DNA of 64,000 bases from a virus (lineage: Duplodnaviria > Heunggongvirae > Uroviricota > Caudoviricetes). Below are positions 20,389 through 39,640 of this stretch, one piece after another. The notes beneath the pieces were generated by a model, which was not told where the DNA came from, did no database searches, and saw only the letters and a list, made by a program, of their open reading frames with translations. Numbering within the stretch: the first letter of the stretch is position 1; the number at the start of each line of letters is the position of its first letter. Where the stretch lies: IMG/VR virus record IMGVR_UViG_3300035208_001992; one strand, 5' to 3'. Position numbers and translations under genes: made by a program.

Positions 20389-20744
20389 GCGTGTTCATCC
20401 CCACTGTTGTAAATGATCTTGTTGAGCGGCACAGCGTCTGTGAACACTGGCATGCCTCCAGCGCGCAGTGCATCGAAGTCCATGTAGTTGATTTCCCATG
20501 CATTCACCAGCACAAGTTGCTGGACAGGAATGCCATCAACCTTGAAGGCATAGTCCCAGCTACCACGCAACTTGATCATCAGATCGCCGATGGACGCGGC
20601 CTTAGCCAGCATGTTAGAGTTGAGCGGCTGAGTGCTGAAATCACCTGTGTCAAGCTCGGCGCCGTCACCATTGGATGACCCATCAGTCTTATCGAATATG
20701 ATGATGCCGCCCTTCACCGAGATCAAGTAGTTCTTCTCATGCAT
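20385..20744 (-). CDS. hypothetical protein
   Basis: Coupled ORF, GAGGA RBS. Confidence 0.6.
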   Translation of the reverse strand: MHEKNYLISVKGGIIIFDKTDGSSNGDGAELDTGDFSTQPLNSNMLAKAASIGDLMIKLRGSWDYAFKVDGIPVQQLVLVNAWEINYMDFDALRAGGMPVFTDAVPLNKIIYNSGDEHA

Positions 20745-21294
20745 TGCGGTAGTATCCTCTGTTGATGATTTTGTTGATCCAAAGCGGTATTGTCCAACGC
20801 AGATAGAACCTCGTACCGATCTTTGGTCGGTAGTAGATCACGCGCCAACTTGTATGCGACTTACTTATTGGCCATGACACACCAAAACCTGTCTTAAATC
20901 CAAGAGTCGTAGGCTTGTGCTTGTCATCGCAATACGAGCATGCGCATAGCTCGTGATGTTGCTCGAACAGGACGCCAAACGGCAAAGCGCGCTCGCGCAT
21001 TGGCGAGCAACAGAAGCGTCTCCATGATTCCAAGAAGCCTTCGATGTTCGCCTTGCCGACAGGGTTAGCCGAATGCACGTGGTATTCTGGAACAGGTCCA
21101 TGCGGATGTCTCTGTTGCAACGCTTTCACGAACTTGAGTCCAGTATCGTCACCGCCAAGATCATGATCGAGACTCATGCACGCTGGCAAGCCATTGATGC
21201 GCACATAATCAAGCGCTTCAACGCTCGAACGTACAAGCACGAAATGTCTATTTGGAACATCTCGCATATCGTCAAGATACAGGTTATAGCTCAT
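20737..21294 (-). CDS. cyclic-phosphate-processing receiver-domain protein with C-terminal extension (start refined to MSYNLYLDD)
   Basis: LYLDD.R..P, SLDHDLGGDDTG, VHSANPVG motifs. Confidence 0.8.
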   Translation of the reverse strand: MSYNLYLDDMRDVPNRHFVLVRSSVEALDYVRINGLPACMSLDHDLGGDDTGLKFVKALQQRHPHGPVPEYHVHSANPVGKANIEGFLESWRRFCCSPMRERALPFGVLFEQHHELCACSYCDDKHKPTTLGFKTGFGVSWPISKSHTSWRVIYYRPKIGTRFYLRWTIPLWINKIINRGYYRNA

Positions 21295-21967
21295 TTGTAA
21301 TTCCCTTGATTGCGGCTGCGACATCGTCAAATTTGAACCATCCATTTTCGACAACGTCAGCACACGTGAATTTAGTTCCGTCTTTGAAGTCAAGCAGCGC
21401 GGTTTCGTCATTCCAAACGGTCGTACCGAGCTTGTTGATGATATCATGGTAGTCCAATGAGAGCATACCAAATGTGAATTGAAACGCGTCCAAGAACATC
21501 GAACTGAACATCTGATCGCGCCAGTTAGCGTCCACGCGATCAACGATTGAGTTGAGATCTATTCTGTGCTTGAACATGACCAATTGATCATGCAAGGTTA
21601 TAGATCCAGGTTTTGCAATATACAGCTGATTAGGCTTAGTTTGGTCAGCGACAATGAACGGCATCGTTCGTGAGAAGTCACTTGTTGAATTTGCTCGGTC
21701 ACTAACGCGACCAGCGTACCTCATATTCAAGATCGGGTATGCAATGCTATTTATGAGTCTTGGTCTGCGATCATCCCACATACGGTCAAGATCGCTCATA
21801 GCTTCACTCACGTTGACCATAGTAGTCATAAATGTGCTGCGATCTGTCTCGATCTTGACGTCGAGTCCTTTCAGCTTGCATAGATTCATGCCAGGCGTGA
21901 TCGCTTGCTTCATCAGTGACTCAACAAAGTCTCTGCCAGTGATCTTCTCGAACGCACGACCTCTCAT
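21284..21967 (-). CDS. MxRHxxE-array member 1 (divergent leader MRGRAFE)
   Basis: Glu7, KLKGLDVKI beta motif, DVVENGWFKF C-terminal motif; GGAGG RBS. Confidence 0.7.
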   Translation of the reverse strand: MRGRAFEKITGRDFVESLMKQAITPGMNLCKLKGLDVKIETDRSTFMTTMVNVSEAMSDLDRMWDDRRPRLINSIAYPILNMRYAGRVSDRANSTSDFSRTMPFIVADQTKPNQLYIAKPGSITLHDQLVMFKHRIDLNSIVDRVDANWRDQMFSSMFLDAFQFTFGMLSLDYHDIINKLGTTVWNDETALLDFKDGTKFTCADVVENGWFKFDDVAAAIKGITNEL

Positions 21968-22009
21968 TGAGATACCTCCATCTATAAGATCCTTGCAAAG
22001 TTGCGACGT

Positions 22010-22963
22010 TTACAACTTGTTAACGTCTGTAGACATCGCTGTCATAATCACGTCTCGCGTAGACTCGTCAGCATCTGTGAACATATTATGTAACTGCCTA
22101 TTGTTGCTCATTTCTTGAGCAAGATCCATGAAGCGCTGATCTTCCATTGCAAGTAAGTTGCCTAATGCAACGTCAAAGTGACCATGGTTAGCTTGTATTC
22201 CAACATTGTATGCGATTGAGCCAAGGTCCATTACGTACTCATGATTCATCACAATTGGAGATTCAGATTGAACGTCACTAAGGTTGACAATTTCGTTTTT
22301 GACTTGGCTAACGTTTCGCTTTATCCGCGCTATGTAGATGCACTCAACTAAAGCCGTCAAATCAATATGCCCATTAGTGATCAAACGCAATAGGCCGAAC
22401 TTTTCTCCGCTAGTACGAATCAGCGCAGCTGGCTCACCGATGTAGTCGATCACAGCATCGTCAATCACATGGTCGACTCGCGCATCAAGTACGAGCTTGA
22501 CCATGTGAATTATTGCACGCAACTTAGCAGACACAGGTAAAGCTTCGATGAACTCTTCAGGACTTAAGTTCAGACTCACGGGTTCAATCAAGGTCCGTTG
22601 AGATGACCAGCTTGTCATTGCACCGTGACGTGATCCTGACGCGCTCCATTCGTCCTTCACATATGTGTCGTAGCCGACAGTCAACTTGCCGTCGATCAAA
22701 GACACGATCCCAATTGGAATGCGTACGCGATCAGAGATGCCGAACCAGGTCTCAAGATACATGAAGCTAACATATGCATGATCGTGCTCACCAATTTGCT
22801 CACGATCGAACACTTGGCGAAGCTCATAAATTCTGTCAGACTTCTGCGGTGGAACTATGTCACACTTAAGTCCAAGCAATTCAATTGGCTGGCGCTCTGA
22901 GCAATACGAAATCGCCCTATTGAGTTCCCAACCTGTTGTTCGTTCAGGCATGTGTCTAGCCAT
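22010..22963 (-). CDS. MxRHxxE-array member 2 (MARHMPE)
   Basis: Leader; IELLGLKC; EFIEALP. Confidence 0.85.
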   Translation of the reverse strand: MARHMPERTTGWELNRAISYCSERQPIELLGLKCDIVPPQKSDRIYELRQVFDREQIGEHDHAYVSFMYLETWFGISDRVRIPIGIVSLIDGKLTVGYDTYVKDEWSASGSRHGAMTSWSSQRTLIEPVSLNLSPEEFIEALPVSAKLRAIIHMVKLVLDARVDHVIDDAVIDYIGEPAALIRTSGEKFGLLRLITNGHIDLTALVECIYIARIKRNVSQVKNEIVNLSDVQSESPIVMNHEYVMDLGSIAYNVGIQANHGHFDVALGNLLAMEDQRFMDLAQEMSNNRQLHNMFTDADESTRDVIMTAMSTDVNKL

Positions 22964-23831
22964 CGAATTGCCTTCCGTTTGCTTGTATGATCAATTGCTT
23001 GTACAACTCGATCTCGTGCCTCAGCATCATTTCAGTGTCTCTGAATTTTAGTTGCTGCCAGTTACGCATAAAATCAGTGATAGATATGTTGATGCTCGGT
23101 GCAATCTGTTTGCTTTGTTGAATGACGCCGCTACTAACAACGTCACGCTTGTACGCGGTCAACACGAAACACTCACTACGGACGCATGCGTCGATCCATG
23201 TCTCATAGCGTTTTGACGGTGAAGTCCAACTTGCACCTTCTACTGTCTCACAGTGCATGATGTGCTTCATAGTCGCTAGGCACGCGTCATAATATGTCGC
23301 AAGACCATCCCGGTCATAATCGATGTTGAGCACTTTGTTCATGCATTGCAGCATCAAATAACCAAACCCGCGAAAGATCTGGTCGCGCTTGAGTTCAGCT
23401 GTCTCTTCCAAATTTCGTCTAATCAGCTCGATCGATTCTGGCATGTCATCATCGCCACGCATAAGATTGCTTGCCAAGCAACCGCGAGTCTGGCACCAAT
23501 AGGCCATGCTATGTATGTGCATAGAATGCGGACCATCGCCAACCAAATTACGCGTAAGCTTTCCTTGTCGCTCACTAAATTTGATATTCGCCGACGCGTA
23601 AGCTTGGACGTAGCATGGCAATATCATGTATGCTATGCTACTAACTGGCGGAATGATTCCATCGTTGCCTGCTTTAGCATAAAACCATTCAGCTAAGCTC
23701 TTCTCTATGTCTGGCTCAACATACAACGGGATCTGTATTCCACGGAAGTTCACGGTCTCGATTTCGCGAAGCTTGTTGAGTTGCGAACGCGTTTTAGCGA
23801 ACTCATCGACTTCATGCATATGTCTAGGCAT
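22956..23831 (-). CDS. MxRHxxE-array member 3 (MPRHMHE)
   Basis: Leader; VNFRGIQI. Confidence 0.85.
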   Translation of the reverse strand: MPRHMHEVDEFAKTRSQLNKLREIETVNFRGIQIPLYVEPDIEKSLAEWFYAKAGNDGIIPPVSSIAYMILPCYVQAYASANIKFSERQGKLTRNLVGDGPHSMHIHSMAYWCQTRGCLASNLMRGDDDMPESIELIRRNLEETAELKRDQIFRGFGYLMLQCMNKVLNIDYDRDGLATYYDACLATMKHIMHCETVEGASWTSPSKRYETWIDACVRSECFVLTAYKRDVVSSGVIQQSKQIAPSINISITDFMRNWQQLKFRDTEMMLRHEIELYKQLIIQANGRQFDG

Positions 23832-24489
23832 ATTTCAAAATCTCCGTTGTCATTGCTTTAGCGTCGAACTCGCCATTCGACACAAATTGTTCAAGCATGA
23901 ACGAGTTTGGACGCCGATGTTTGACTACATACGCAGTGTCACGATCGAAGTACACGCAACTACCGTTTTTGACAAAAACTGTATTATAGCCAACTCTGAC
24001 TTCATACTTGGTTGGGCGAGCTAAGTCGCAAAATAGTCCTAAAAGATGCGTAGCCATAACATAATCGATTGCCTTGAACTTAGCGTGATCTGGCTGCAAG
24101 GCAATCAGATCAGCAAGCGAACCGATCTTTGTAGTAGGATCGATTTGGTCCAATCTGCAATCGTCACGATTGTGCTCTTCCCAGTACACGCTCGGCATGC
24201 GATAATCTTCAACCATTGCAGTGAAGCCAAGAATTGGAGTGCTAACATAAGTACGCGTTTTAGAAGCAAGATGTACTGCATAGTCATTAAAGCACGTTCG
24301 CCAATCATCACGGATCAATATCATGCCGTCTTTGCGCGGCGCATTGAAGAACGCATCAAGCGTAGTCAGGTCACCTACGCTGTACTCAAGCTTGATCCCA
24401 TGCAGATCAATCTCGACTTTGTCTTCACGGCGATACAGCAATTTTCGGAACAGCTCATCGCTTTGGTTTTCAGCCATGCGCCGCGTCAT
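23824..24489 (-). CDS. MxRHxxE-array member 4 (MTRRMAE)
   Basis: Leader variant; IDLHGIKL; FVSNGEFD. Confidence 0.8.
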   Translation of the reverse strand: MTRRMAENQSDELFRKLLYRREDKVEIDLHGIKLEYSVGDLTTLDAFFNAPRKDGMILIRDDWRTCFNDYAVHLASKTRTYVSTPILGFTAMVEDYRMPSVYWEEHNRDDCRLDQIDPTTKIGSLADLIALQPDHAKFKAIDYVMATHLLGLFCDLARPTKYEVRVGYNTVFVKNGSCVYFDRDTAYVVKHRRPNSFMLEQFVSNGEFDAKAMTTEILKYA

Positions 24490-25181
24490 TCTTTGATCCC
24501 AAGAATATGTTCAATGATCGTATCTATGACTTTCAGCTGCGCAATCGAAAACCAGATTGTGCGATCACTATTGACTTTCCACGGCTGGTTGTCATTTGTG
24601 TGATCAACGCATAGGCTTGTTAGCCAAATCCCTGTTGGTACTTCACCTGCAATCAACTGACCATCATCATTGATGTTGTCTACGTTTGACAGCCATGGCA
24701 GCATCTGTCCATTGCATTGAATTGCAGCGCTGATCACGTTTCTCACAAGGTGGATTGCGACGCGCTTCTTGAGGTATTGTGGCATCTGATCAATTACTTC
24801 TTGCGCGCTAGCTGCCATGTCAATATCGAATGCAGCTTCATGAGGATGCGCACTAGACGCAGCATCTTGTTGCGATGAAGATATGTCATAGAAAACGCGC
24901 TCGTCATCACCTCCAAACACGAAGGCAAGGTGATCATAGTTCTCACGCGTATTGGCTGAGTTGAAACCAACGGGACGCCAAGATTCAACAACTGCAAATC
25001 TCAATGCAACACGAGCCACGTCCTTGTATCCGTGATTCTTCCAGCCAGTACTGTGATATCCGTCTATTTCGATGCTGCATGGCAGTCCATAAAAGCTCAA
25101 TGGATCGTTTTTCTTGCGCATCATCTGCCTGATCCATTCATCTGATTTCATCTTGATAGGCTCTAACATCGCGCGTGTCAT
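24486..25181 (-). CDS. MxRHxxE-array member 5 (MTRAMLE)
   Basis: Leader variant; LSFYGLPC; QEVIDQMP. Confidence 0.8.
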   Translation of the reverse strand: MTRAMLEPIKMKSDEWIRQMMRKKNDPLSFYGLPCSIEIDGYHSTGWKNHGYKDVARVALRFAVVESWRPVGFNSANTRENYDHLAFVFGGDDERVFYDISSSQQDAASSAHPHEAAFDIDMAASAQEVIDQMPQYLKKRVAIHLVRNVISAAIQCNGQMLPWLSNVDNINDDGQLIAGEVPTGIWLTSLCVDHTNDNQPWKVNSDRTIWFSIAQLKVIDTIIEHILGIKE

Positions 25182-25912
25182 GCTGTGTCTCCGCTCATAT
25201 AGTCGATTTCAACGATTCCAGCTTTTTCGAGTTGTTCCATCACGCCTTGTATCTTGCTTTCGATCAATCCTGGATTCTGCGGCTCACATCTTATGCCAGC
25301 AATAGCGAGTCGTTCAATGACATAGTCAAGTTGCAATGTGTGATCACTGAACAACTTAGCTAGTTCAAATGTTATTTGAGGCTTTGATCTTTTGGCATAG
25401 AACACGCCTTCTTTACGTGTGCTAAGCTCAAGTTCTTTGATCACATCTCTGACGCCTGGCAGGCCACGCATAGACGGCGCTGCTTGCCAAATAATTTGCT
25501 TAAGCAGTAAGCCAAGTGCGCTAGGTGGCAAGTCATCTATGATCTTTTGCGTTGTCCACGTTGTGTCAACAGGCTCTGTAAGCCGATAATCTTTGCGCGG
25601 ATACCGCATAAGAAGAGCATCACGCTTCGACTCATAAATCATGAACGGTGTCTTGTAGCGTACGCTGAACTCACTGTTGTAGCACTCTAAGGTCGCGTAG
25701 TATTCAATCTTGAGCCACGCCACTGCATATCTCAGAAAGTGACCATCATTTTCTTCTTCATCGACGTCACCGCGCATCGAAGCCATAGCTAACTCTGATG
25801 ACTCAAGTGTAGCGTCGAGCCCGAATAGCTTCAATGGCCCATGCTGCTCCAACTTCAATATGTATTCATATGCAGTTGGCGGTGCAACAGTTTCACACGC
25901 GTGCCTAGCCAC
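25178..25912 (-). CDS. MxRHxxE-array member 6 (MARHACE, GTG start)
   Basis: Leader; LKLFGLDA; QKIIDDLP. Confidence 0.85.
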   Translation of the reverse strand: MARHACETVAPPTAYEYILKLEQHGPLKLFGLDATLESSELAMASMRGDVDEEENDGHFLRYAVAWLKIEYYATLECYNSEFSVRYKTPFMIYESKRDALLMRYPRKDYRLTEPVDTTWTTQKIIDDLPPSALGLLLKQIIWQAAPSMRGLPGVRDVIKELELSTRKEGVFYAKRSKPQITFELAKLFSDHTLQLDYVIERLAIAGIRCEPQNPGLIESKIQGVMEQLEKAGIVEIDYMSGDTA

Positions 25913-26075
25913 TGACTTGTGCCTGATGAGCAGCAGCCATGACTCGGATCTCGAAGAGGCTATAATCGATTTGCAAGATGTCTAGAGATCTTCTTGCTCC
26001 ATGGTGGAAGATTGACCGAAGCGGCTGTGGTAGGTCAACTGACCGATCTGGAACTTCACAGGCGTGTCTTGACAT
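25905..26075 (-). CDS. MxRHxxE-array member 7, mini-gene (56 aa, MSRHACEVPDRSVDLPQ...QVSG)
   Basis: Not in ORF track; read manually; AAGGGAG RBS; stop overlaps next start by 8 nt like other members. Confidence 0.7.
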   Translation of the reverse strand: MSRHACEVPDRSVDLPQPLRSIFHHGARRSLDILQIDYSLFEIRVMAAAHQAQVSG

Positions 26076-26773
26076 GGTACGTGCTCCCTTCTCAATTTGT
26101 AGATGTATTTGCGAAATTGACGAAAGCTTAGTCGCCCATGAGCTAACAGCGCTTCAACTGGTATCTCATGCAGTTTCTTCGTGTAACCGTCACGCCAAAG
26201 TATTGTGCTACGTCCGTCACAGGTCTTCGTGCCAAGCATTCCGCGTGTCATACACCTGTTTTCAGAACGCAGCCAGATAAGGACGTTGGCGGCCACTGCT
26301 GGAATGATGAGATCAGCATGGTGCTCAATCACGTCTTGCCACGAATTGAACTGGCTTGCGTCAAAATCAAATTCTTCAGCTTTGTCAGTTTCAGTTATCG
26401 TGTTGCCAACGATTGAGTACTTGCGTATTGTGATCTTTGGCTTATACGTGTCTGAGCATACGTCAACCAGTGACATCGATCGATAGCTTTTTCCGAACTG
26501 CTCCAATTCGAGCCTTATGCTCATGACACCAGTTCGTCTAACATCTTTGCGACGTTCAGCTGTTTCTACTAGCTCGTTGATGCGCTCTTCGACTGACTCA
26601 TTCACGCGTGCATCATGGCTCATGTCATTGGCTTCAACGTCATCGTATGTAGGAACCACGCCACATGACTTGACAGAGAAGTCAAGACCGAGTATTCGCA
26701 CAATGCCACTTCGCAATTTGTAAGCCTTGCGCAGTTGAGCGTGAGGATCTATCTCACGCATGTGCCTAGCCAT
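25982..26773 (-). CDS. MxRHxxE-array member 8 (MARHMRE)
   Basis: Leader; VRILGLDF. Confidence 0.85.
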   Translation of the reverse strand: MARHMREIDPHAQLRKAYKLRSGIVRILGLDFSVKSCGVVPTYDDVEANDMSHDARVNESVEERINELVETAERRKDVRRTGVMSIRLELEQFGKSYRSMSLVDVCSDTYKPKITIRKYSIVGNTITETDKAEEFDFDASQFNSWQDVIEHHADLIIPAVAANVLIWLRSENRCMTRGMLGTKTCDGRSTILWRDGYTKKLHEIPVEALLAHGRLSFRQFRKYIYKLRREHVPCQDTPVKFQIGQLTYHSRFGQSSTMEQEDL

Positions 26774-27587
26774 TTCGGAAGCAGTATGTTGTTGCGAGTC
26801 TTCGGTTGCGTCTGAAATCGCTACCGCAGATCTCAGTCAATTTTGCTGATACAGCATTAGCAACGTCAAAATCGATTTTGCCATCGTTCACTGGTATCGC
26901 GAGTCTTTCTGCGCACCTTTTGAAATCTCTTCCACGCATGACAAATTCTGCGTTGTTGTCATCTTGGCTTTTTGCATAGCAAGTGCTCTCCAACGTTTCG
27001 GCGTCGCGCGCGTCATAGAGGCATCGATATAACACAGAGCTAAGTATGATCTCGCCATTGCCGGACGTATCAACATCGTTGATCAAGTCAAGACATAAAT
27101 CAGCGTCTTTCATCGTATACACGTGTTTCAAACCGCGTGATGTTAGCAGTTGTGAAACCATAGTGTTTGTCATGCCGCGCTCGTCCAGCGTTAAGTACTT
27201 CAACAGCGTTTCAGGCGTGTTACCAAATTTCATTTGATCAGCTAGAAACGGATGCGCTGCATGCAATTTGTAGTTGTAAGCGTCAGAATTTGGACAACAA
27301 TAAGTTGTTTGACCGCCTACTGACCAATCTCTTGGCAATGCAGAAATTAGACCTGCAACGTCATGTATTGGACCAAGCAATCTCCAGTTGATGAGTCGCC
27401 GTGCTTCACCACGAGTAGTCAAGCCAACTACTAAAGCTTCAATACTTTCCTCATCAACGTCATAGACGCTGAACAATTCAATGTCGATACCGCAGAAACG
27501 CATGATAGGACGATCTTTGACAGCACGCACAACATCAGTTGCTGTTGTGCAATCTGGATCGTATTGCTCAGCCATTCGTCTAGCCAT
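26766..27587 (-). CDS. MxRHxxE-array member 9 (MARRMAE)
   Basis: Leader; MRFCGIDI; VNDGKIDF. Confidence 0.85.
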   Translation of the reverse strand: MARRMAEQYDPDCTTATDVVRAVKDRPIMRFCGIDIELFSVYDVDEESIEALVVGLTTRGEARRLINWRLLGPIHDVAGLISALPRDWSVGGQTTYCCPNSDAYNYKLHAAHPFLADQMKFGNTPETLLKYLTLDERGMTNTMVSQLLTSRGLKHVYTMKDADLCLDLINDVDTSGNGEIILSSVLYRCLYDARDAETLESTCYAKSQDDNNAEFVMRGRDFKRCAERLAIPVNDGKIDFDVANAVSAKLTEICGSDFRRNRRLATTYCFRNG

Positions 27588-28299
27588 GTGTTAGCTCCAC
27601 TGCTTTTTCGAATACCAGATCTGTATTGAACTTACCATGTCCGTCTGTGATGTCATCTATGCTGTACTTCAGCTTCATACGAGTGTTTTCAACGCGTATG
27701 ACTTCGTCAAGAGACTCACCAGGCAGAATTGACGTCATAGTGTTGAAGCAGAACGGGCCATCTCCACCGCTTAGCCAAGGTTTTGCTAGTTCACAATCGT
27801 TTGAAAGGCGCACGCGCAGCTCCTTTATGAAGTCTGCACCAAGTATGTACGTGGCTGAACGCTCGGGCAAGCCTGCAACCAACGCCGCTAAGCTTGAAAC
27901 GCATTTGACGACTGAGTGTTCGCTCGGATCTATTGCTTGGCAGAAGAAAGCGCCTTCTTGGATGCGCTTTGGCGCCGATACGTAATAGAAACGTCGGTCA
28001 CATGCTGAAGTGAAGATGAATTGCTTGAATGGTCGTGCTGGCTCGCCTTTCATTGTTAGTGTCAAGAGAGGCTTCCACGCGTCACTGCCACGCGGAAACA
28101 GCATACTAGCTGCTGTGTCTTCAACAGCGAAATTTGAGAGCGCATATTGAAGCATTGTCAAGTGACTTGACGAGTTGACATTGTAGTCGACACCATGGAG
28201 TTTGATTTCTTTGCTTGCGATTAGCATGTCAATGATCAACGCTGCGTACTCAATAGGATCGCTGGGTACAGTGTTGCGTTCACATGCATGCCTAGCCAT
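27580..28299 (-). CDS. MxRHxxE-array member 10 (MARHACE; start refined)
   Basis: Leader; IKLHGVDY; ALVAGLP; DITDGHGKF. Confidence 0.85.
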   Translation of the reverse strand: MARHACERNTVPSDPIEYAALIIDMLIASKEIKLHGVDYNVNSSSHLTMLQYALSNFAVEDTAASMLFPRGSDAWKPLLTLTMKGEPARPFKQFIFTSACDRRFYYVSAPKRIQEGAFFCQAIDPSEHSVVKCVSSLAALVAGLPERSATYILGADFIKELRVRLSNDCELAKPWLSGGDGPFCFNTMTSILPGESLDEVIRVENTRMKLKYSIDDITDGHGKFNTDLVFEKAVELTHG

Positions 28300-29002
28300 C
28301 GTTGTCGGCTCCAAGCAGCTTCAATGCACTAGCGATGTTCGATCGCAATTGATCATTGCTCGAGATGAGCACACCTGTGCTATGCAATGATCCAACAAGA
28401 TCTCGCAACGTGTTCTCAAGCTGCTTCACGCGATCGCTATATGCTTGCAAGGTACGTGGCGGCTCGAAATCGATGTTGAAGATGCGTCTACGAGTGTCTT
28501 TTCTTGACGCAAGCAGAAACTTCTTGCTGTCCTGGTTAAGATCACCGACCAACGTCAATTGACATACTGCGCTTAAGCTTTCAAAATACTCACCATTGTT
28601 AGTGAATACGATGCGCTTGGATCCATTGCCACTATTGATCTGGTTGAATATCATTGAAGCAGGATTGCGTACAGAGTCAAAATGAGCAGCACTCTTCAAG
28701 TACGGAAACAGATCAAGGTATATGATGATCCCTTGAGCGCTTGCGCGACCAAGCAATGGGTTACCTGGGCCATTGCCATCATGCGTCACGGACACGTTGT
28801 GTAGGCAAAACACAGACGGATCTATGCGTGTCCGCCAGCGTCCAGGTATGACTAAGACGCTACGTGACTTGTCTGCGTCAGCATAAGCAGTGATAAGCCA
28901 TGATGCGAATGAACTGAACAACGCAGCATTGCTCTCAATTCCAGTCAAATCAATGACCGTGTGCTGTTGAAGCGTTCCAAACATGTTTTCAAGATCAAGC
29001 AT
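28292..29002 (-). CDS. hypothetical protein, only non-member gene inside the array
   Basis: 236 aa, lacks leader; possible degenerate alpha/beta P-loop-like fold (IIIYLD, IVFTNN). Confidence 0.7.
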   Translation of the reverse strand: MLDLENMFGTLQQHTVIDLTGIESNAALFSSFASWLITAYADADKSRSVLVIPGRWRTRIDPSVFCLHNVSVTHDGNGPGNPLLGRASAQGIIIYLDLFPYLKSAAHFDSVRNPASMIFNQINSGNGSKRIVFTNNGEYFESLSAVCQLTLVGDLNQDSKKFLLASRKDTRRRIFNIDFEPPRTLQAYSDRVKQLENTLRDLVGSLHSTGVLISSNDQLRSNIASALKLLGADNDG

Positions 29003-31300: not shown

Positions 31301-31345
31301 TTGCGCTCCTTTCTATTGCTAATAGTCATTTACTCAGTCGCAAGT

Positions 31346-31981: not shown

Positions 31982-32513
31982 TGCGTTGCCTCCTAGGCTT
32001 CGTGATCCTAGCGATGATAGGAGCGATCTTGTTTTCGTTGATACTGCCGTCGCTGATGACGTCACTTAATTTCACTATTTGCGACTTGAGCGTTTTGTTG
32101 AAACCAATGATTACACTACGGCTGTATCCAACGATCGTACTGTTACGCGTGTAGCAGACACTGACGTATTTGTTGTCTTTCACGCCCATCTCTTCGATGC
32201 ATGCTCTGACCGCATGCTCGATTAGATCCACTTTGATTTCGCTCAACACATTCTTGATCACGCTTTTAGCGATGTTCAACGGATCAACTATGGTGCTAGT
32301 GAAAAGATAGTAGTAGGCGTCATCTCCTTGGTGAAGATGAGCAACATCGACTCTGCCACGCCAAGGAGCTGCGCTTGGAACAGCATACAGCAGACCAACA
32401 GGATCCAAACGCAATTCAAAGATGATGCCGTCCAGCTTGAACTCTTGACCAGCGCATACAGCGCGTCGCACGCGCGAGCCGTTAGTTAGTGGTTCATACG
32501 CGTGTCTACTCAT
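31962..32513 (-). CDS. MxRHxxE-array member 15 (MSRHAYE; start refined)
   Basis: Leader; FKLDGIIF; DVISDGSIN. Confidence 0.85.
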   Translation of the reverse strand: MSRHAYEPLTNGSRVRRAVCAGQEFKLDGIIFELRLDPVGLLYAVPSAAPWRGRVDVAHLHQGDDAYYYLFTSTIVDPLNIAKSVIKNVLSEIKVDLIEHAVRACIEEMGVKDNKYVSVCYTRNSTIVGYSRSVIIGFNKTLKSQIVKLSDVISDGSINENKIAPIIARITKPRRQRNGQTRA

Positions 32514-33153
32514 CTTCGTGCAACCTCTCGCGGTAACTGCCAAGCACCCACTTAAGAACAGCCTCACCATCGATTTTGCTATTCACTGTGATGTCGGCTA
32601 TTTTGACGTTTGTTCTTTCTATGTCAAAATGCCTTTTGTAGCGCTTATTTGGTGGCAGCCATAACGCAGATAAGCTTAAGCGATTATTGCACCATACAGA
32701 AAAGATCAAATCGCTATGCACATACATACTATGCGTGCGCCTAACAGCTATGGAACTTGGCAGTTCATCGTTGAACGGTAGCAAACTTGATTTCACGAGC
32801 ATATCAATGATGCTTGACTTCGTTGGGCCAGGCATGCCATTCGTCAGCTGCATCTCATCAGTTGCAGTAAAGGCATACATTCCAGTGGCAGTGCGCGAGT
32901 ACACAATGTCATTGCGCTCATAAGATTCACGTGCAATGTTGATCTTTGACAATGATTCGGGATCATGACAGTCAATCATCACACGTCCAAAATCATGCGT
33001 GGCTTCTTCACCATCTTCATTCATGAAATAGAATGGCTCTTCATGTGAGCAGACTAAGGCATTCAACCCACAAATTTCGATTGTTGCTGGCTTGCTGACA
33101 AGTGATCGAGCCCAGTCTATAGGTTGCATTCGTTCGTACATGTGCCTAGCCAT
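32506..33153 (-). CDS. MxRHxxE-array member 16 (MARHMYE; start refined)
   Basis: Leader; IEICGLNA; DITVNSKID. Confidence 0.85.
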   Translation of the reverse strand: MARHMYERMQPIDWARSLVSKPATIEICGLNALVCSHEEPFYFMNEDGEEATHDFGRVMIDCHDPESLSKINIARESYERNDIVYSRTATGMYAFTATDEMQLTNGMPGPTKSSIIDMLVKSSLLPFNDELPSSIAVRRTHSMYVHSDLIFSVWCNNRLSLSALWLPPNKRYKRHFDIERTNVKIADITVNSKIDGEAVLKWVLGSYRERLHEDE

Positions 33154-33310
33154 GTGATGCAGTCTCCATTTGTTCGCGATCATGCAGCATTCGAGCAAGC
33201 ACTTGGTCACTAACTTGCAAGGTTTGGAATGGCTTCAAAGTTCCGTTCATTTGCATAAAACTCACAACGATTTCTACTATGCCTGGCACTTCACATGCGT
33301 GCCTAGCCAT
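33146..33310 (-). CDS. MxRHxxE-array member 17, mini-gene (54 aa, MARHACEVPGIVEIVV...ASHG)
   Basis: Not in ORF track; read manually; 8-nt overlaps at both ends. Confidence 0.75.
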   Translation of the reverse strand: MARHACEVPGIVEIVVSFMQMNGTLKPFQTLQVSDQVLARMLHDREQMETASHG

Positions 33311-33485
33311 GAGACATCAACCTAGCTGCAGGTGGCCTGATCTGTATAAGTGATTCGGTGAACTGTTTGAACATCTTCTCAGCATCGACTTGCCCAAACG
33401 TTGACACTTCGTCAAACGCGCACCAAACTCGCGTGCCGCCGCGCAATCGCTGAACATCAGGTACTTCACAACCGTGTCCAGCCAT
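33303..33485 (-). CDS. MxRHxxE-array member 18, mini-gene (60 aa, MAGHGCEVPD...; start refined)
   Basis: AGGAG RBS; contains LRGGTRVWCAFDE. Confidence 0.75.
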   Translation of the reverse strand: MAGHGCEVPDVQRLRGGTRVWCAFDEVSTFGQVDAEKMFKQFTESLIQIRPPAARLMSHG

Positions 33486-33630
33486 TTGAGATCTCCTGTC
33501 GACGACGTCTTTCTTCCATTGCTTCATTTATCCATTTTGGTGACAAGTCATAGACTCGTATCATGCGCCCGTCATTGCGCTCAATTGTCATGACATTTTC
33601 GTCTTTCACTTCTGCGCCGTGTCTAGCCAT
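33466..33630 (-). CDS. MxRHxxE-array member 19, mini-gene (54 aa, MARHGAEVKDENVM...WTRL)
   Basis: Not in ORF track; read manually; GGAGG RBS. Confidence 0.75.
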   Translation of the reverse strand: MARHGAEVKDENVMTIERNDGRMIRVYDLSPKWINEAMEERRRRQEISNGWTRL

Positions 33631-34262
33631 TTGGCAACCTCCGCTTCTTTGAATTTGTCAAAGCATATAAGTGCTCGCTCGAACAGGAAGTGTTCGTCAA
33701 GAGCGCCGTCTTTGATGCATTCATCTAACTTACAAATAGGCATAGGCATGATCATGCGTCTGTCACTTGTCATTATCGCAAAGCCGATCAGCAAGTCATG
33801 ACTACTTAAGTTGTATGTAATCAGCGAACGCAACAACGTATCACGAGAAATGCTGGTGATTTTTTTGATGCTAGATAAGATGTCGTAGCGCGCGATGATT
33901 GAAGATCTGACGTGGCAACCGATTACGTTAGAAATCAAGTTGTCAGGAGCGCAATCAATCAACTCTTGCGCGTTAATGCTGGATGGAACATTGACACGAT
34001 TAGACATGTTGTACGTGCCAGCGCCATCGTCCTCTGTCGAATTGAATCGTGCAATAACGCTTTCACCAAGATCATGCCTGAATAACCATGTCACGTTGAG
34101 CCATTGACTGTCCGCAATTATGACGCGATCTTCATCGTAATCTGAGCCACAACGCCTCCACACTTTGCCATTAAGTCCATGCATAGTCGCGTCTATTGGA
34201 CAAGCTAACGCGTTCATCCAGCGAGTCATTGGTTGACACTGTTCGTATGCGTGTCTAGGCAT
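33606..34262 (-). CDS. MxRHxxE-array member 20 (MPRHAYE; start refined)
   Basis: Leader; ATMHGLNG; QELIDCAP; CIKDGALD. Confidence 0.85.
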   Translation of the reverse strand: MPRHAYEQCQPMTRWMNALACPIDATMHGLNGKVWRRCGSDYDEDRVIIADSQWLNVTWLFRHDLGESVIARFNSTEDDGAGTYNMSNRVNVPSSINAQELIDCAPDNLISNVIGCHVRSSIIARYDILSSIKKITSISRDTLLRSLITYNLSSHDLLIGFAIMTSDRRMIMPMPICKLDECIKDGALDEHFLFERALICFDKFKEAEVAKWLDTAQK

Positions 34263-34911
34263 GGGTAGTATACAGCTTTCCAAATACAGCTTCAATCTGG
34301 TCTTTGGTTTGCTGCTTGAACGACAAGACCAAACGCATTATTCTATAGCGATCGAAATCACCATCACGCAACAGCGACGACAATGGAGCGCTTGCTGTTT
34401 CGGAGACGTTGAAGTGCGTGCTTGTCGCGCCAATCACAGCAAATTTTACATGCAACGCGTCTTGCGCGTCTTCACTGATGACAACGTCCATCTTTGAGAC
34501 GCAGTCACTCACATAGCTACTACGCCGAGACAAATCGAACGTTTTCACAACGTAATCCTGAAAGGCATATCGCAGCAACTGCAACTTCTTGGACTTCGGA
34601 AGTTCGTCGACAATCTGCTGTGGCTCGCGACAATCCAATGGCTGACGTATACTAGTGAATCGGTCATTGCCTTCACGCCAGTTAGCCACAAAGTAATCGC
34701 GAGAACTCAAATATGATGTGTCAATAATCAAGCTCTTGAATGGGAATGTCATAAGCATGTCGCACTTGTCTTGATCTGTACCAGGCACTCCAATGAGCCA
34801 ATCGAGCCTGAGCACACAGTTGACTCCGCAAAGTTTGACGTGTTGCGGTGTAGCAAGGCACTTCACTTGATCTTCCCATATTTGTCGATGTTCGACTGCA
34901 TGCCTGCTCAT
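34255..34911 (-). CDS. MxRHxxE-array member 21 (MSRHAVE)
   Basis: Leader; VKLCGVNC; QQIVDELP; LLRDGDFD. Confidence 0.85.
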   Translation of the reverse strand: MSRHAVEHRQIWEDQVKCLATPQHVKLCGVNCVLRLDWLIGVPGTDQDKCDMLMTFPFKSLIIDTSYLSSRDYFVANWREGNDRFTSIRQPLDCREPQQIVDELPKSKKLQLLRYAFQDYVVKTFDLSRRSSYVSDCVSKMDVVISEDAQDALHVKFAVIGATSTHFNVSETASAPLSSLLRDGDFDRYRIMRLVLSFKQQTKDQIEAVFGKLYTTHA

Positions 34912-35540
34912 GCTTGTGCTCCAACGCGTTTGTCTTCGACAATTAAGCGCTTTTCAAGTAGTGACAGACTTAGCAATTTAGGCAAGTTGAACTTACCGTC
35001 TTCGCACACGTCAGCAATAGTGATCACAGCAACACCATGATGCTTGACATAGTCACTCAACCTTCTTGTGATATAGCATTCTTTGAGGTCACAGCTGACA
35101 ACGATTGACATCAAGCCAAACGTGATCTCGTATCCGATCGATCTGGCGTACAATATAAGGGCGTTAGTCAAGATCGACTCGAACACATTTCTGAGGTCAG
35201 TCGCAGGTATTGCGTCGACCAATGATTGAAGCGACGAGCTGCATATTGCATCAGCATGTCCGTTGATGTACTTAGATGCGGCGTCATGCTGGTAGATGAA
35301 AACATCGCTCTCGTCATCATACCAAGCAATAGCACAACCGTACTTGTTTTGACCGTAGCTCAACGCAAGACGGTCAGTCGTCTTAGGAACGAGCTCGTCG
35401 AACTTGCGCGTTGCATCTGCATTGAACATGCGTGCGCTCAAATCAATCAAGCCAACGTGTACAACGTTGTTGTGTTGGATCATTTTGAGAAGATCTTGGT
35501 ATTTGAGCACTTTACCGATCTCGCACATATGTCTAGCCAT
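34908..35540 (-). CDS. MxRHxxE-array member 22 (MARHMCE)
   Basis: Leader; QSLVDAIP; DVCEDGKFN. Confidence 0.85.
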   Translation of the reverse strand: MARHMCEIGKVLKYQDLLKMIQHNNVVHVGLIDLSARMFNADATRKFDELVPKTTDRLALSYGQNKYGCAIAWYDDESDVFIYQHDAASKYINGHADAICSSSLQSLVDAIPATDLRNVFESILTNALILYARSIGYEITFGLMSIVVSCDLKECYITRRLSDYVKHHGVAVITIADVCEDGKFNLPKLLSLSLLEKRLIVEDKRVGAQA

Positions 35541-36228
35541 GTCCGATTACTCCTACCTCGTCAGATGGCACTGTTACTCCAGCAGTGTTGAATCCGTTCA
35601 ATGTAAGCTGCTCAAGCACATACTTGTCAACGCGCTTCACGTTCTCGACTAAGCTAGACATTGTACAGATTTTCTTGGCGTGGACAAGCACATCATAGTC
35701 ACCGTTGCGCCAGACTAACTTTGTGAATTTGTTGTCGCTTCTTACCATTCTTATGTTCGGCAGGTCGAGAATCAATGATGCAACATATTCAACTATGGTG
35801 AACAAAATCTGAGACAATGCATAATAGTGTTGTTGCGTGCCAGTGAATTCATCAACAAGATCTTGAAGTCTGCCACAAAACGCTGTTGGTAATTTGTACC
35901 AGCTATTCTCAGAACCGGAACTGAACAGCTGCATGTCAGGTTGGTATGTGCCACGACAAATTCGCGCTAGCGTGACTGATCTCGTAATGAACTTAAGAGG
36001 AGCACTAAGATCAAGATTGAGCATCGCAACGCTAACCGGCATGATATTGAACTCATTGTCAAGCATGCTCACTTGCTCTTCACCAGACATACGAGTCATT
36101 GTGAAGAATGCACTGCTTACTGTGGCATCAATTCCGCAAAGTTTGATCGACAATTGCTGGTTGCCGCGATCGAGATACTCCACCAAGCGATCACGTGGAC
36201 TGACTCGTTCTGTCATGTGTCTAGCCAT
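35533..36228 (-). CDS. MxRHxxE-array member 23 (MARHMTE; start refined)
   Basis: Leader; IKLCGIDA; QDLVDEFT; GGAGG RBS. Confidence 0.85.
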   Translation of the reverse strand: MARHMTERVSPRDRLVEYLDRGNQQLSIKLCGIDATVSSAFFTMTRMSGEEQVSMLDNEFNIMPVSVAMLNLDLSAPLKFITRSVTLARICRGTYQPDMQLFSSGSENSWYKLPTAFCGRLQDLVDEFTGTQQHYYALSQILFTIVEYVASLILDLPNIRMVRSDNKFTKLVWRNGDYDVLVHAKKICTMSSLVENVKRVDKYVLEQLTLNGFNTAGVTVPSDEVGVIGHG

Positions 36229-36983
36229 TACAGCAACCTCCGCGTATGATGCAGCTTCCAAATTTCGTCGTCTTTCACAGCAATGATGTCTTTCAACTTT
36301 GCCTCATCAAATTTCACAGCTTTAGCAGCAGACAGCGTGATGACGTCGACTCGACGTTCAGCGCTCGCGTTTGTCATGACGACAAAGTCTTTCTTGACTC
36401 GACGTATATGGAATCTAGAGCCTTCCAATGAGTACGCCAGCACATAGTTGAGCAGCATTCTAGCTAACAGCGCGTCTTTGTCTTTAGCGCTGAGCTCATT
36501 CAACTGTTGCTTAATCACGTCCTGTCCAACGACCAGGTTGAATGGTTCTAAATCGCATGCTGGGTCTACGCGCCCGAACACGCGTCTACCACCATCAAAA
36601 TTCGAACCATATAGCAAAGTCACCACATCGAATTGGTCGTCGGACGTTGCCGCAACAAACGGGACGTCGATCGACGTTGCAGTCTGTGTGGTCGACTTTA
36701 TTGATGCGAAGAACATTTCAGCAAAGCTACTGTAGCTCTTCCAACCGTCACGCGTTGTAACTGCATTGATCGGAAAATGAGCAGTGCTTGGATCAGAGCA
36801 ATCGTCTAGTACGAGCTCAACTGTTTCTCTAAGATTGCTATCGACATATGTAAGTCTCTTTGCCGCTGAAGTAACGATGATCGGCAATCCATCGATCTCT
36901 AACTCGACTGGATCAGCGTACTTGATGAGTGCTTCAGCAAGCATATCTCGTCCACAAGCCTTTTCAGTCATATGCCTAGGCAT
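36228..36983 (-). CDS. MxRHxxE-array member 24 (MPRHMTE)
   Basis: Leader; LEIDGLPI; QQLNELS. Confidence 0.85.
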   Translation of the reverse strand: MPRHMTEKACGRDMLAEALIKYADPVELEIDGLPIIVTSAAKRLTYVDSNLRETVELVLDDCSDPSTAHFPINAVTTRDGWKSYSSFAEMFFASIKSTTQTATSIDVPFVAATSDDQFDVVTLLYGSNFDGGRRVFGRVDPACDLEPFNLVVGQDVIKQQLNELSAKDKDALLARMLLNYVLAYSLEGSRFHIRRVKKDFVVMTNASAERRVDVITLSAAKAVKFDEAKLKDIIAVKDDEIWKLHHTRRLL

Positions 36984-37623
36984 GATGCCTCAACAGTTTC
37001 TTGCGCTCCAATTCAGCGCGTAAGAACGTGAGCGGATGCTGGTACGACGCAAGTGTTCTGACGCTGCTGACAACTACATGCGTTGAAAGGAAGAGTGCAG
37101 CATCATCATTTCCAATAGGCTTGGCATAGCAAGTTTTTGTTCCTCCATCTTTGCAAAAGTTAGCGAGTGCTGCCAAGACGCATTTGCAACCAAACCAGAA
37201 TTTGGTCTCATTGCTTAGCATGTCAAACGCTTCTCGTATGCTATTGACGGATCGATATGATACTGCTTGCATCTCAATCGTTGATGACCTAGCCCAATCA
37301 GATGCTGTTTCAGCGTTCATCACTGCGATGTAAAACAAGCCAGATCCAAAGTTTGTGGCGAGGAAAGAATGCCAGTCAGTTGGAAGACGCTTCTCGTCCA
37401 AGCTGCCATCTGTCAGTTGCGCGTCACCGAGGTTGAACATCATGTTGGACGACGTGTTCTTTGCAAAAGCATATGCACTCTTCACAACTGTTTCAACATT
37501 AACGCGACATGGACGGACGTTCATTTGCAGATTGCCGAATAGTGGCACGCGTTCTTCTTGGCATTCGAACACTCGTTTGATCTGGTCTTCGAACGTTACT
37601 TGCTCAGCCATGTGTCTAGCCAT
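36976..37623 (-). CDS. MxRHxxE-array member 25 (MARHMAE)
   Basis: Leader; VPLFGNLQM; SIREAFDMLS. Confidence 0.85.
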   Translation of the reverse strand: MARHMAEQVTFEDQIKRVFECQEERVPLFGNLQMNVRPCRVNVETVVKSAYAFAKNTSSNMMFNLGDAQLTDGSLDEKRLPTDWHSFLATNFGSGLFYIAVMNAETASDWARSSTIEMQAVSYRSVNSIREAFDMLSNETKFWFGCKCVLAALANFCKDGGTKTCYAKPIGNDDAALFLSTHVVVSSVRTLASYQHPLTFLRAELERKKLLRHHA

Positions 37624-38293
37624 GAAGTGGGCTCCAATTCCGTATCAGTTCATTGCGTAGTTTAGCATATGGACGATCTGGCTCATGTATGATGCTTGCA
37701 ACGTCACTAACAATGACGCTACCCTTTTGAGTATCATACAGTTCGATCAATCCGTCTGCGTTCAAGTGCATTCCAATGCGTTGCGGTACGTTACCGCATG
37801 CACCACCGAATTCCTGAGCAACATACATGTTGAGCTCATCTTGGTACTCGCGTGTGATGAACATGTCTTTGTGACATTTGCTCAAGCAATTAAACGCGTC
37901 TTGTATCGACTGCACTTCTAAATATGGCACAAGCTCACTGTCATTTCTTGTAGCATACATCCAAGCTAGCGCACTTGGACGTCTTAGCGCAAAATGCTGT
38001 GACCTATACGATATGCCGTCCACTGACAGCAGACCATAACGACTCAAATCTTGTTTGGTCACAATCCTGTCATCGCTTGAAGGCCACATAATATATGATT
38101 CAATAATTGGCCTGCTAACTTGGTCAGGCATGTTCACGAACATCTTACGTTCTATAGGCTCGCGTTGATTGAGCGACGTGTAGATCTTTATCTTCAGCTC
38201 TTTGTTCAACTCGAATGTCTGTGGTTCACTATTGTGTAGGACGCAAAGACAATGGAAGAAGCTTGGTCTAGTTTCAGTAGCATGCCGACTCAC
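37616..38293 (-). CDS. MxRHxxE-array member 26 (MSRHATE, GTG start)
   Basis: Leader; AAGGAG RBS; close paralogue of member 28. Confidence 0.85.
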   Translation of the reverse strand: MSRHATETRPSFFHCLCVLHNSEPQTFELNKELKIKIYTSLNQREPIERKMFVNMPDQVSRPIIESYIMWPSSDDRIVTKQDLSRYGLLSVDGISYRSQHFALRRPSALAWMYATRNDSELVPYLEVQSIQDAFNCLSKCHKDMFITREYQDELNMYVAQEFGGACGNVPQRIGMHLNADGLIELYDTQKGSVIVSDVASIIHEPDRPYAKLRNELIRNWSPLHG

Positions 38294-38320
38294 AGCAGAT
38301 CTCCTTTGTTGATGACGTTG

Positions 38321-38890
38321 TTAGAACCAGCGTTCAACCTCTTCAATATCTATCATGTGATTCGACACCAGTGCGCTGAGCATTATCTCAGGTGAGACGA
38401 AGAGCATCTCTTCAATGAAGCAGTGAGCGACTAGTCCAATGTCTTTTCCATGCGTGTTAGCAGTCAGGCGAGTCAAATGTGCTTGCCTGACTGCTTTGAT
38501 CCGCTTACCTTCATGACCAATCTTGCTGAATCTTGATCGTCGCAAAACGCCTTTGACCATCTCAGTAGCAACTATGCCTTGATGCGCTTCTGACATGTCA
38601 TCAATCAACTGCTGTGGATCAGCGCTGTGCATGGTAAGTTCTTCGTCAATCATTATCATGTACTCGCTGCTCAACTTCTTGTGGCCGATCATGACGTTGA
38701 ACTCATTGACGCGCTTCAATCGAACAGCATGTGATAACTCCAAGTCACTCTCATCGCCTTCGTACACGTTTTCAAATGTGTCGATGACCATAGTGCATTC
38801 GATGTCATGGAACATCACCGTTTGCTCTTCACGCAAGTTGCTGGCCAATCGCGTCCAGCACGACAGTTCTTCTGGCATATGCCTAGACAT
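38321..38890 (-). CDS. MxRHxxE-array member 27 (MSRHMPE; start refined)
   Basis: Leader; VMFHDIEC; QQLIDDMS. Confidence 0.85.
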   Translation of the reverse strand: MSRHMPEELSCWTRLASNLREEQTVMFHDIECTMVIDTFENVYEGDESDLELSHAVRLKRVNEFNVMIGHKKLSSEYMIMIDEELTMHSADPQQLIDDMSEAHQGIVATEMVKGVLRRSRFSKIGHEGKRIKAVRQAHLTRLTANTHGKDIGLVAHCFIEEMLFVSPEIMLSALVSNHMIDIEEVERWF

Positions 38891-39548
38891 GAGTACGACT
38901 CCATTGACGTACAAATTCATCGTAGAATTTGACGTACGGTTCATCAACCTCATTGATGATCTGTGACACGTCACTAATGATCACTTCTTCACAGGTGGAG
39001 TACGTTACGTCTAAGACATCTTCATTTATGACAACATTCAAAAACGTGCGTACGTCATTTATGCCGCGCTTCACTGAAAGATCTATTGCGAGTCTAAGGA
39101 AGAACTCGCTCGTGATGATCACGTCTTTGGTTAGCTTACTCAAGCACTCCCAAGTTTGTTTGATGGATCTGATGTCTTTGCACAACACGCTTTTGGATCC
39201 TTCAGCAAACGGATAAATCCTGGCATATGCGTTTGGCGTTCTCAACAGCATCTCTTCTGAAGCGAGTGATTCACTAGATGCCATCAGCAAGACGAATCGT
39301 GACGCTGGTCCTAATTCTGGATCAGTTCTAGTTTCGTTGGTTGTCCACGTTGCCCAGCCGTTGACTATTGGATGATGCAGTGTCTTGGATGTGTCTTGTG
39401 GGTACAGTATGTCATCAATAGATGCTGGAGTAGCGCTAACGCGCATCTGCAAATCACTGTTCAATACGAATATCTGCGGATCGCAGCGTTTGATGTCACA
39501 TAGGCAATTGTAGATGTCATCACGATCTTCGAATGCATGTCTAGCCAA
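38883..39548 (-). CDS. MxRHxxE-array member 28, first gene of the array (MARHAFE, TTG start)
   Basis: Leader; AAGGAG RBS. Confidence 0.85.
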   Translation of the reverse strand: MARHAFEDRDDIYNCLCDIKRCDPQIFVLNSDLQMRVSATPASIDDILYPQDTSKTLHHPIVNGWATWTTNETRTDPELGPASRFVLLMASSESLASEEMLLRTPNAYARIYPFAEGSKSVLCKDIRSIKQTWECLSKLTKDVIITSEFFLRLAIDLSVKRGINDVRTFLNVVINEDVLDVTYSTCEEVIISDVSQIINEVDEPYVKFYDEFVRQWSRTHV

Positions 39549-39606: not shown

Positions 39607-39640
39607 GCATTGTTTACGCCTGGTTAACAGCGGCCAATAG

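Follow-up and report, generated by a model that had tools for sequence, protein, structure and literature searches.

The virus record IMGVR_UViG_3300035208_001992 of IMG/VR (Caudoviricetes) carries on its minus strand, between positions 21284 and 39548, a tandem array of genes whose products begin with one seven-residue leader, M-A-R-H-[AM]-x-E in condensed form. The stretch analyzed, referred to below as the window, is 64,000 nucleotides (nt) long; positions are given in its coordinates, and together with about 31 kb read beyond it some 95 kb of the genome were covered. The leader array is real and stands far above chance. Behind the leader, the array appears to encode about 24 paralogous soluble proteins of 183-343 amino acids (aa), lineage-specific and rapidly diversifying, with one predicted alpha/beta fold that has no known relative. 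The explanation favored here, tentatively and with a little less than even confidence, is that the leader would be a cleavage tag and that the family would be packaged in the phage head, lose the leader there by a cut after Glu7 and enter the host together with the DNA.

Translation of the window gave the pattern M/V/L-x-[R/G]-[H/R/A]-[M/A/G]-x-E at 28/28 minus-strand starts, and the open frames behind them run for 54-343 codons. When the same pattern was searched from all ATG, GTG and TTG codons in the six frames, exactly those 28 starts were retrieved and no others; the core R-H-[MAG]-x-E occurs three more times in the six-frame translation, never at a start. Glu7 is present in 28/28 leaders, Arg3 in 26/28 and His4 in 24/28, with position 5 occupied by Met (13), Ala (13) or Gly (2). 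A preliminary description of this DNA had reported the same 28 starts and the same counts for Glu7, Arg3 and His4, and both were reproduced. A Shine-Dalgarno-like motif lies 5-14 nt 5' of 24/28 leader starts. Public gene calls for many members (P0001, P0005, P0007, and others) begin at Met5 or further in, so that databases of proteins do not show the leader. Its start is nevertheless the true one, as follows from the Ala and Gly variants, from the positions of the Shine-Dalgarno-like motifs and from conservation in relatives.

The same leader was found in three other metagenomic phage lineages, which supply 26 further long members. Across the 52 long members of the four lineages, Met1 is constant (52), residue 2 is Ala (29), Pro (7), Ser (6), Arg (5), Thr (3) or Gly (2), Arg3 occurs 51 times and His4 45 times, position 5 is Met (29), Ala (21) or Gly (2), position 6 is free, and Glu7 occurs 51 times. 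At position 6, which would be P2 of a cleavage site, Cys is the preferred residue in L001 and L005, and Val in L003. Residue 2 is thus Ala, Ser, Pro, Thr or Gly in 47/52 members, residues that permit removal of the initiator Met.

Synonymous codons in the leader fall into two groups. At His4 (CAT 11, CAC 13), position 5 (four codons for Ala) and Glu7 (GAA 20, GAG 8) their use resembles that of the gene bodies. Arg3 is encoded by AGR in 22/26 leaders versus 27 % in the bodies (p 1e-9), and Ala2 by GCT in 13/15 versus 34 % (p 4e-5). This bias arises because 15/28 array junctions consist of an identical 8-nt overlap, ATG-NNT-AGR, in which leader codons 2-3 hold the TAG stop of the upstream gene. 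Array genes are mostly translationally coupled by this overlap. The preliminary description had taken codon variation as a sign of selection on the peptide; this stands for His4, Ala5 and Glu7, where synonymous variation is free, whereas Arg3 and Ala2 are under an added constraint at the DNA level.

The bodies had also been described as hypervariable and barely alignable, which was overstated. A MAFFT alignment, a hidden Markov model (HMM) and sequences from outside the window resolve them as a single diverged paralogue family, and structure predictions give them one fold. Pairwise comparison within the window yields few significant pairs (the genes starting at 38293 and 39548, members 3 and 1 of the array, are 32 % identical, those starting at 25912 and 36228, 27 %), and blastp, phmmer and jackhmmer searches confined to the window also gave few significant pairs, jackhmmer without convergence. 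The HMM of 49 members matches every one of the 23 intact long genes (E 1e-16 to 1e-36), with the rest of the window above E 0.4. Beyond the leader, three weak blocks emerge from the multiple alignment: around residue 35 it has h-x-h-x-G-[LIV], in mid-protein Q-x-[LIV]-[IV]-D-x-h-P, and toward the C-terminus L..L..[DN]-G. With isoelectric points mostly of 5-6, the family is mildly acidic.

Two AlphaFold2 models were obtained, one for the member at 30656-31300 (predicted local distance difference test score, pLDDT, 72.9) and one for the terminal member at 21284-21967 (pLDDT 86, predicted template-modeling score 0.83). Both have an identical order of elements: about ten N-terminal residues of coil lead into a helix and a beta-hairpin, after which a variable insert, a long helical pair and a small sheet precede the helix at the C-terminus. 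Leader residues 1-10 form in both the coil before the first helix, at lower pLDDT (77-80) than the part that follows, and in these models the leader looks accessible. Neither model has a convincing neighbor in the PDB (Foldseek, VIA-align; best Z 5.4 and 4.2), and searches of BFVD and, by shape, of the ESM Atlas with the first returned nothing above noise; nor did a search of the ESM Atlas by features. A profile search against PDB sequences gave no match for the array family, and no Pfam or PHROG family is common to the 52 long members. The models thus point to what is apparently a new fold-level protein family outside Pfam and PHROGs, in agreement with the preliminary description, whose author did not recognize it. 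The N-terminal domain of chimallin (PhuN) was considered as a relative, a lead that the second model did not bear out: residues 120-208 of the first model match three solved chimallins at Z 5.4, 4.8, and 4.6 (root-mean-square deviation 3.2-4.0 over 86-87 aa), below a noise guide of Z 8, and the matches listed for the second model, at pLDDT 86, include no chimallin.

Relatives of the family are few. In a profile search of 1.84 billion representatives, only the window's proteins and six outside relatives were recovered, barring two long repeat proteins that look spurious, and all six start M-[AP]-R-H-[AM]-[CT]-[EK]. On the contigs of these relatives (L001/L002, L003, L005/L006) the arrays number 8-10 leader genes, or more, versus 28 in the window. 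In L001 the array is placed as in the window, after the gene for ribonucleotide reductase (RNR). Between window and L001 the RNR proteins are 66.7 % identical, the array orthologues 25-31 % and the terminal gene 45 %. For the array half nearest RNR, comparison with array members of L001 gave no significant match, and the array has therefore expanded, with quick turnover. Array proteins were also found on contigs of up to 305,891 bp, pointing to an uncultivated jumbo phage known from metagenome contigs only; samples containing it include those behind SRR6484787, SRR18595299 and ERZ27247350. In INPHARED, megablast of the RNR region found no match, nor did tblastn of the member at 35533-36228 against 50,697 phage records. 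Scans of IMG/VR with proteins, with the leader as a DNA pattern and with an alignment of orthologues returned only chance single matches, and a scan of the JGI metagenome_contigs with the terminal-gene alignment returned none.

A second motif bears on what the leader may be. The genome was extended about 31 kb past the window by exact-protein look-ups, contiguity being proven by overlaps of 11-15 kb at 99.98-100 %. Here, 46-53 kb upstream of the array, lie five adjacent minus-strand genes for proteins of 379, 285, 404, 149, and 707 aa (L031:2783-9884, about 85.2-92.3 kb of the extended sequence). Their 1,929 aa contain 12 sites of the form V-x-A-R-[V/T]-[A/S/G]-x-E, versus 0.22 expected. Some are placed 10-24 residues from the N-terminus, as in propeptides (VISTARTGME, MTALEIVEARVSAE, MSLLVSARTAAE), and others at the four internal junctions of the 707-aa gene, which resembles a polyprotein of five modules of 121-150 aa. 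Homologues of this gene in other phages (P0038-P0040; 24-37 % identity) have the motif at the same positions. A logo of 24 sites outside the array reads V-x-A-R-[V/T/I]-[A/S/G]-x-E, and all of them fit the [S/A/G]-x-E rule; those in the five genes are probable maturation-protease sites. No such site occurs in the real open reading frames (ORFs) of the window, and the array family has no detectable homology with the modules of the 707-aa polyprotein.

Read as positions P7-P1 of a cleavage site, the leader M-A-R-H-[A/M/G]-x-E has Ala at P6, Arg at P5, and Glu at P1 in common with the second motif, and 23/52 leaders have Ala or Gly at P3. The favored proposal is that M-[A/S/P/T]-R-H-[A/M/G]-x-E would be a minimal N-terminal propeptide containing the site of the phage's maturation protease, A-R-phi-small-x-E, cut after Glu7. 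It would then be a variant, with His at P4, of the V-x-A-R-[V/T/I]-[A/S/G]-x-E sites, read by the same protease or by its paralogue. Since the prohead proteases of giant phages act inside the prohead, cleavage would imply incorporation into the head and delivery with the DNA; the family would enter the prohead, be trimmed there and be injected like the internal proteins of T4. It would then be plausible for the family to act in diverse ways as infection begins, and inhibition of defense enzymes would be a guess at this role. Cleavage, packaging, injection, and function are what we infer; the two motifs, the family and its fold prediction, the gene coupling and the conservation in four lineages come directly from the sequence analysis.

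Several observations weigh against this proposal. His occupies P4 in 45/52 leaders and V, T or I never do, and there is no hydrophobic residue at P8. Met, found at P3 in 29/52, lies outside the published S/A/G set and outside all 24 head-type sites. No prohead protease of the gp175, gp245 or gp21 type was found by Pfam or PHROG among about 40 larger window ORFs and ten proteins of L031. The tag suggested in the preliminary description gains real though indirect support from the second motif, with which it agrees in register, and departs from it at P4, P3, and P8, with no protease found in the 95 kb; the head loading, delivery at infection, and anti-defense role also proposed there would go beyond this support. 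As one fold is predicted for all members, their N-terminus may also belong to it as a working element and not be a detachable tag. The array adjoins genes of nucleotide metabolism under its own promoter-like motif, which was not found in the 31 kb of structural-looking genes, so that nothing indicates co-expression with head genes. The acidic proteins are unlike the basic internal proteins of T4, and the embedded TAG stop partly explains the conservation of Ala2 and Arg3. Finally, the phage is uncultivated and known from sequence, and both virion location and expression would have to be deduced from it.

The precedents found in the literature are limited to T4 and to phiKZ and SPN3US. The internal proteins of T4 (Ip1-3, and the ip loci of T-even phages) are, like the array products, a diverse and non-essential-looking set encoded in variable loci, and in both cases a short conserved leader ending in Glu opens each protein. 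That leader serves for packaging and is removed by the prohead protease, after which the proteins are injected and block type IV restriction of DNA containing hydroxymethylcytosine (hmC) (PMC3012670, PMC12373910, PMC5694885). Ip1-3 have nothing in common but this leader, and each inhibits a different type IV enzyme directed at hmC DNA (PMC12373910, PMC3012670). A further likeness is that the present phage encodes a dCMP (deoxycytidine monophosphate) hydroxymethylase resembling T4 gp42, which is context for the analogy and not evidence for it. The differences are considerable. The array leader has seven residues of unrelated sequence, whereas the propeptides of T4 head proteins, which are capsid-targeting sequences, have 10-20 (PMC5694885). 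It heads 28 tandem copies, versus three genes in T4 and about ten known types. The array bodies are homologous and share one predicted fold, whereas T4 internal proteins have no mutual homology; and the array proteins, known here from their genes, are larger (about 220 aa) and acidic.

The proteases of phiKZ (gp175) and SPN3US (gp245), with the specificity [S/A/G]-x-E, offer the other comparison. SPN3US gp245 cuts after A-X-E, favors Val at P4 and removes N-terminal propeptides, several cuts being made per propeptide (PMC10052503). Substrates in phiKZ-related giant phages have small-x-Glu sites with Val at P4, N-terminal propeptides and multiple cuts, and include ejection proteins and head paralogue families (PMC10052503, PMC5694885). 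The second-motif sites fit this rule, as do leaders with Ala or Gly at position 5. The published motif in contrast has neither the Ala-Arg that the leader conserves at P6-P5 nor its His at P4 or Met at P3, and SPN3US propeptides are mostly 20-127 aa long. Phages of the SPN3US type possess a diverged protease paralogue (PMC5694885). SPN3US also has paralog family B, 20 head proteins of which 17 are in tandem (gp138-154) and all were detected in the head (PMC5694885). Like the present locus, it is a giant-phage array of many diverged paralogues in tandem. Family B, however, has no shared N-terminal heptapeptide and is not named among the nine protease-processed head proteins (PMC10052503). Homology between the two was rejected by hhalign, in which the 49-sequence family alignment matched gp138-154 at a probability of 0.05 % and E 0.8.

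A bolder version of the favored proposal can be formulated, which we consider possible and rather doubtful. Here A-R-H-small-x-E would be a seven-residue code routing any protein into the head of a jumbo phage, and the array would be the largest known injected library, about 24-28 proteins per genome, with a new fold and faster turnover than core genes, aimed at defenses against hydroxymethylcytosine DNA; the related code V-x-A-R-V-A-x-E would process polyprotein head components of the same virion. Since all the bodies belong to a single family of one predicted fold, the portability of the tag to unrelated proteins is unsupported.

Of the alternatives, the one that survives best is that the family is cytoplasmic and never packaged, its N-terminus being a working part, perhaps a docking peptide for a common phage or host partner, or a Cu/Ni site of the type X-R-H exposed after Met removal. 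We take this seriously while doubting it. It would agree with the single predicted fold and the three further motifs, since the leader may be no more than the stretch of the domain that is conserved best, and with a residue 2 that nearly always permits Met removal by the rule given in PMC10052503. The array also lies among early-type genes (RNR, dCMP hydroxymethylase, SNF2 helicase) with its own promoter-like motif, and is followed by cREC_REC and YAcAr genes typical of conflict systems based on nucleotide signals. The leader is however predicted as a coil outside the fold, and mini-genes of 54-67 aa retain it without a body. The match in register with the A-R-x-small-x-E sites of the same genome would have to be a coincidence, and for a metal site of the X-X-His type it is unexpected that Glu7 and Arg3 are better conserved than His4, which is replaced in 7/52.

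It is improbable, in our estimate, that the leader is a protease site cut for another purpose, either timing, as an on/off switch late in infection, or as a decoy that soaks up or mimics a protease activity monitored by host sensors. The second motif supports this as it supports packaging, and phage proteases are reported in a 2026 preprint to activate CBASS (cyclic-oligonucleotide-based antiphage signaling system) immunity (PMC12991175), so that substrates may matter outside head assembly. The prohead proteases of T4 and giant phages nevertheless act in the prohead on assembled substrates (PMC5694885, PMC10052503), the loss of seven predicted-unstructured residues makes an unlikely switch, and the decoy has no evidence of any kind. 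It is highly improbable that the peptide is a by-product of a nucleic-acid feature, a coupling cassette of start and embedded stop or a recombination microhomology, although the 15 ATG-NNT-AGR junctions, the codon bias confined to codons 2-3 and the frequent duplication and turnover implied by arrays that vary in size and content among related phages would suit it: the codon data largely refute it, His4, position 5, and Glu7 being fixed as residues yet synonymously free, Arg3 persists where its codon is CGN, as does the leader where junctions lack the overlap, and it is the peptide, not the DNA, that is conserved across four lineages.

Members of the array were called by translation from the start together with the family HMM, and of the 28 leaders 23 belong to intact long genes, one to a split gene and four to mini-genes, all on the minus strand. 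The first member, of 221 aa, begins LARHAFE from a TTG start (38883-39548). It is followed by a second of 189 aa with MSRHMPE (38321-38890), a third of 225 aa with VSRHATE (37616-38293), a fourth of 215 aa with MARHMAE (36976-37623), and a fifth of 251 aa with MPRHMTE (36228-36983). The sixth (231 aa, MARHMTE, 35533-36228) and seventh (210 aa, MARHMCE, 34908-35540) precede two of 218 aa each, the eighth with MSRHAVE (34255-34911) and the ninth with MPRHAYE (33606-34262). Three mini-genes come next. The first of these (54 aa, MARHGAE, 33466-33630) matches the family HMM through the leader only, the second (33303-33485) encodes 60 aa with MAGHGCE, and the third (54 aa, MARHACE, 33146-33310) resembles with its N-terminus the member at 25178-25912 (37 % over 59 aa).

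Long members then resume with MARHMYE (215 aa, 32506-33153), MSRHAYE (183 aa, 31962-32513), MARHAHE (211 aa, 31346-31981), and VARHAYE (214 aa, 30656-31300), the last being the source of the first model. The split member has an N-terminal piece of 63 aa with VPRHAYE (30484-30675; HMM positions 2-43, E 1.9e-5) and a leaderless C-terminal piece of 172 aa in another frame (30023-30541; HMM positions 103-184, E 1e-6). Its frameshifted sequence, 30023-30675, is identical in an independent assembly (L025), which marks it as a pseudogene or a gene requiring frameshifting, with no obvious assembly error. Beyond the longest member (343 aa, MTRHMHE, 28995-30026) stands the sole array gene without a leader (236 aa, 28292-29002), a non-member by the HMM and without a Pfam match. 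The remaining genes begin MARHACE (239 aa, 27580-28299), MARRMAE (273 aa, 26766-27587), and MARHMRE (263 aa, 25982-26773), followed by the fourth mini-gene (56 aa, MSRHACE, 25905-26075), which overlaps the 3' end of the preceding member in another frame. After it come VARHACE (244 aa, 25178-25912), MTRAMLE (231 aa, 24486-25181), MTRRMAE (221 aa, 23824-24489), MPRHMHE (291 aa, 22956-23831), and MARHMPE (317 aa, 22010-22963), whose orthologue in L001, P0028, is 31 % identical. The terminal member (227 aa, 21284-21967), modeled above, has a relaxed leader, MRGRAFE, and belongs to the best-conserved subfamily, with 41-50 % identity to P0032, P0035, P0036, and L001:11028.

A class II RNR lies directly upstream of the array, and just past its gene a terminator-like G+C-rich hairpin with a T-run, read in the sequence at 39641-39679 on the minus strand, parts it from the array. 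A promoter-like motif, GTTAAC-N5-GTAAAC with a TATTAG-like element about 20-25 nt downstream, stands at the head of the array (GTTAACCAGGCGTAAAC, 39612-39628, minus strand). A second copy heads a second sub-operon (GTTAACCATGCGTAAAC, 31344-31360, minus strand), and a degenerate third precedes the terminal gene (22008-22024, minus strand). These three matches, all within the array, compare with 0.24 expected in the window. In L001 (3804, 10971) and L005 (1065, 8400) the motif likewise precedes both the array and the terminal gene, and it was found neither in the 31 kb of structural-looking sequence past the window nor elsewhere in the 95 kb. Being confined to arrays, it ties the array to neither early nor late genes; by its distribution, GTTAAC-N5-GTAAAC would be an array-specific promoter- or operator-like element driving these operons.

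Immediately after the array, at 20737-21294 on the minus strand, comes a cREC_REC protein (cyclic-phosphate processing receiver; PF20274, E 6e-22), and a YAcAr/SLOG gene lies a few kb on; cREC_REC and YAcAr genes follow the array in L001 and L005 as in the window. These two genes, with equivalents in L001, L005, and L025, may act in counter-defense against nucleotide signals. The hydroxymethylase-like gene, at 3894-4586 on the plus strand, encodes an enzyme of the thymidylate-synthase fold whose best PDB match is the T4 gp42 dCMP hydroxymethylase (E 6e-23, versus 1e-13 to 1e-15 for thymidylate synthases) and whose RSND motif aligns with that of T4. Judged from this enzyme, the phage probably makes hydroxymethylcytosine DNA. 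Just upstream, at 2935-3885, is a gene resembling deoxynucleoside monophosphate kinases. The window also encodes a SNF2 helicase of 1,972 aa. A 334-aa ORF at 1079-2083 on the plus strand partially matches the large terminases, of 690-940 aa, of 195-230-kb jumbo phages at 22-27 % identity, and this terminase gene may be split or interrupted. For the large neighboring ORFs, comparison with PDB sequences gave no informative match.

Past the window end, at about 64-75 kb of the extended minus strand, two proteins of 1,480 and 1,966 aa (L027, L029) contain repeated Fn3_assoc and CHB_HEX_C_1 carbohydrate-binding modules and are accompanied by a glycosyltransferase. These giants look like fiber or surface proteins, and the structural module would thus start just beyond the window. 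In the relative L003, from SRR28640812, a tubulin of the TubZ/RepX type (16609-17742, minus strand; E 5.6e-13 to RepX) lies beside the array region. It gives no signal specific to PhuZ, no PhuZ structure being among the matches, and nucleus-forming biology is thus not indicated.

A short conserved leader on diversified phage proteins is a principle known from the T-even phages. What appears to be undescribed is the present leader with its embedded stop codon, the family and the fold predicted for it, an array of this size, and the pairing with a second, related motif class. If the leader is a tag for head loading and cleavage, this phage lineage would inject a protein arsenal larger and faster evolving than that of any characterized phage, and the leader would offer a very short tag whose capacity to package foreign cargo could be tried, as was done with the capsid-targeting sequence of T4. 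Two motif classes would then be linked to one maturation protease, and the internal-protein repertoires of uncultivated jumbo phages would become predictable from sequence. Whatever the mechanism, a new family, a dual-coding junction that places a stop codon inside a conserved leader and a leader masked by automated gene callers all stand.

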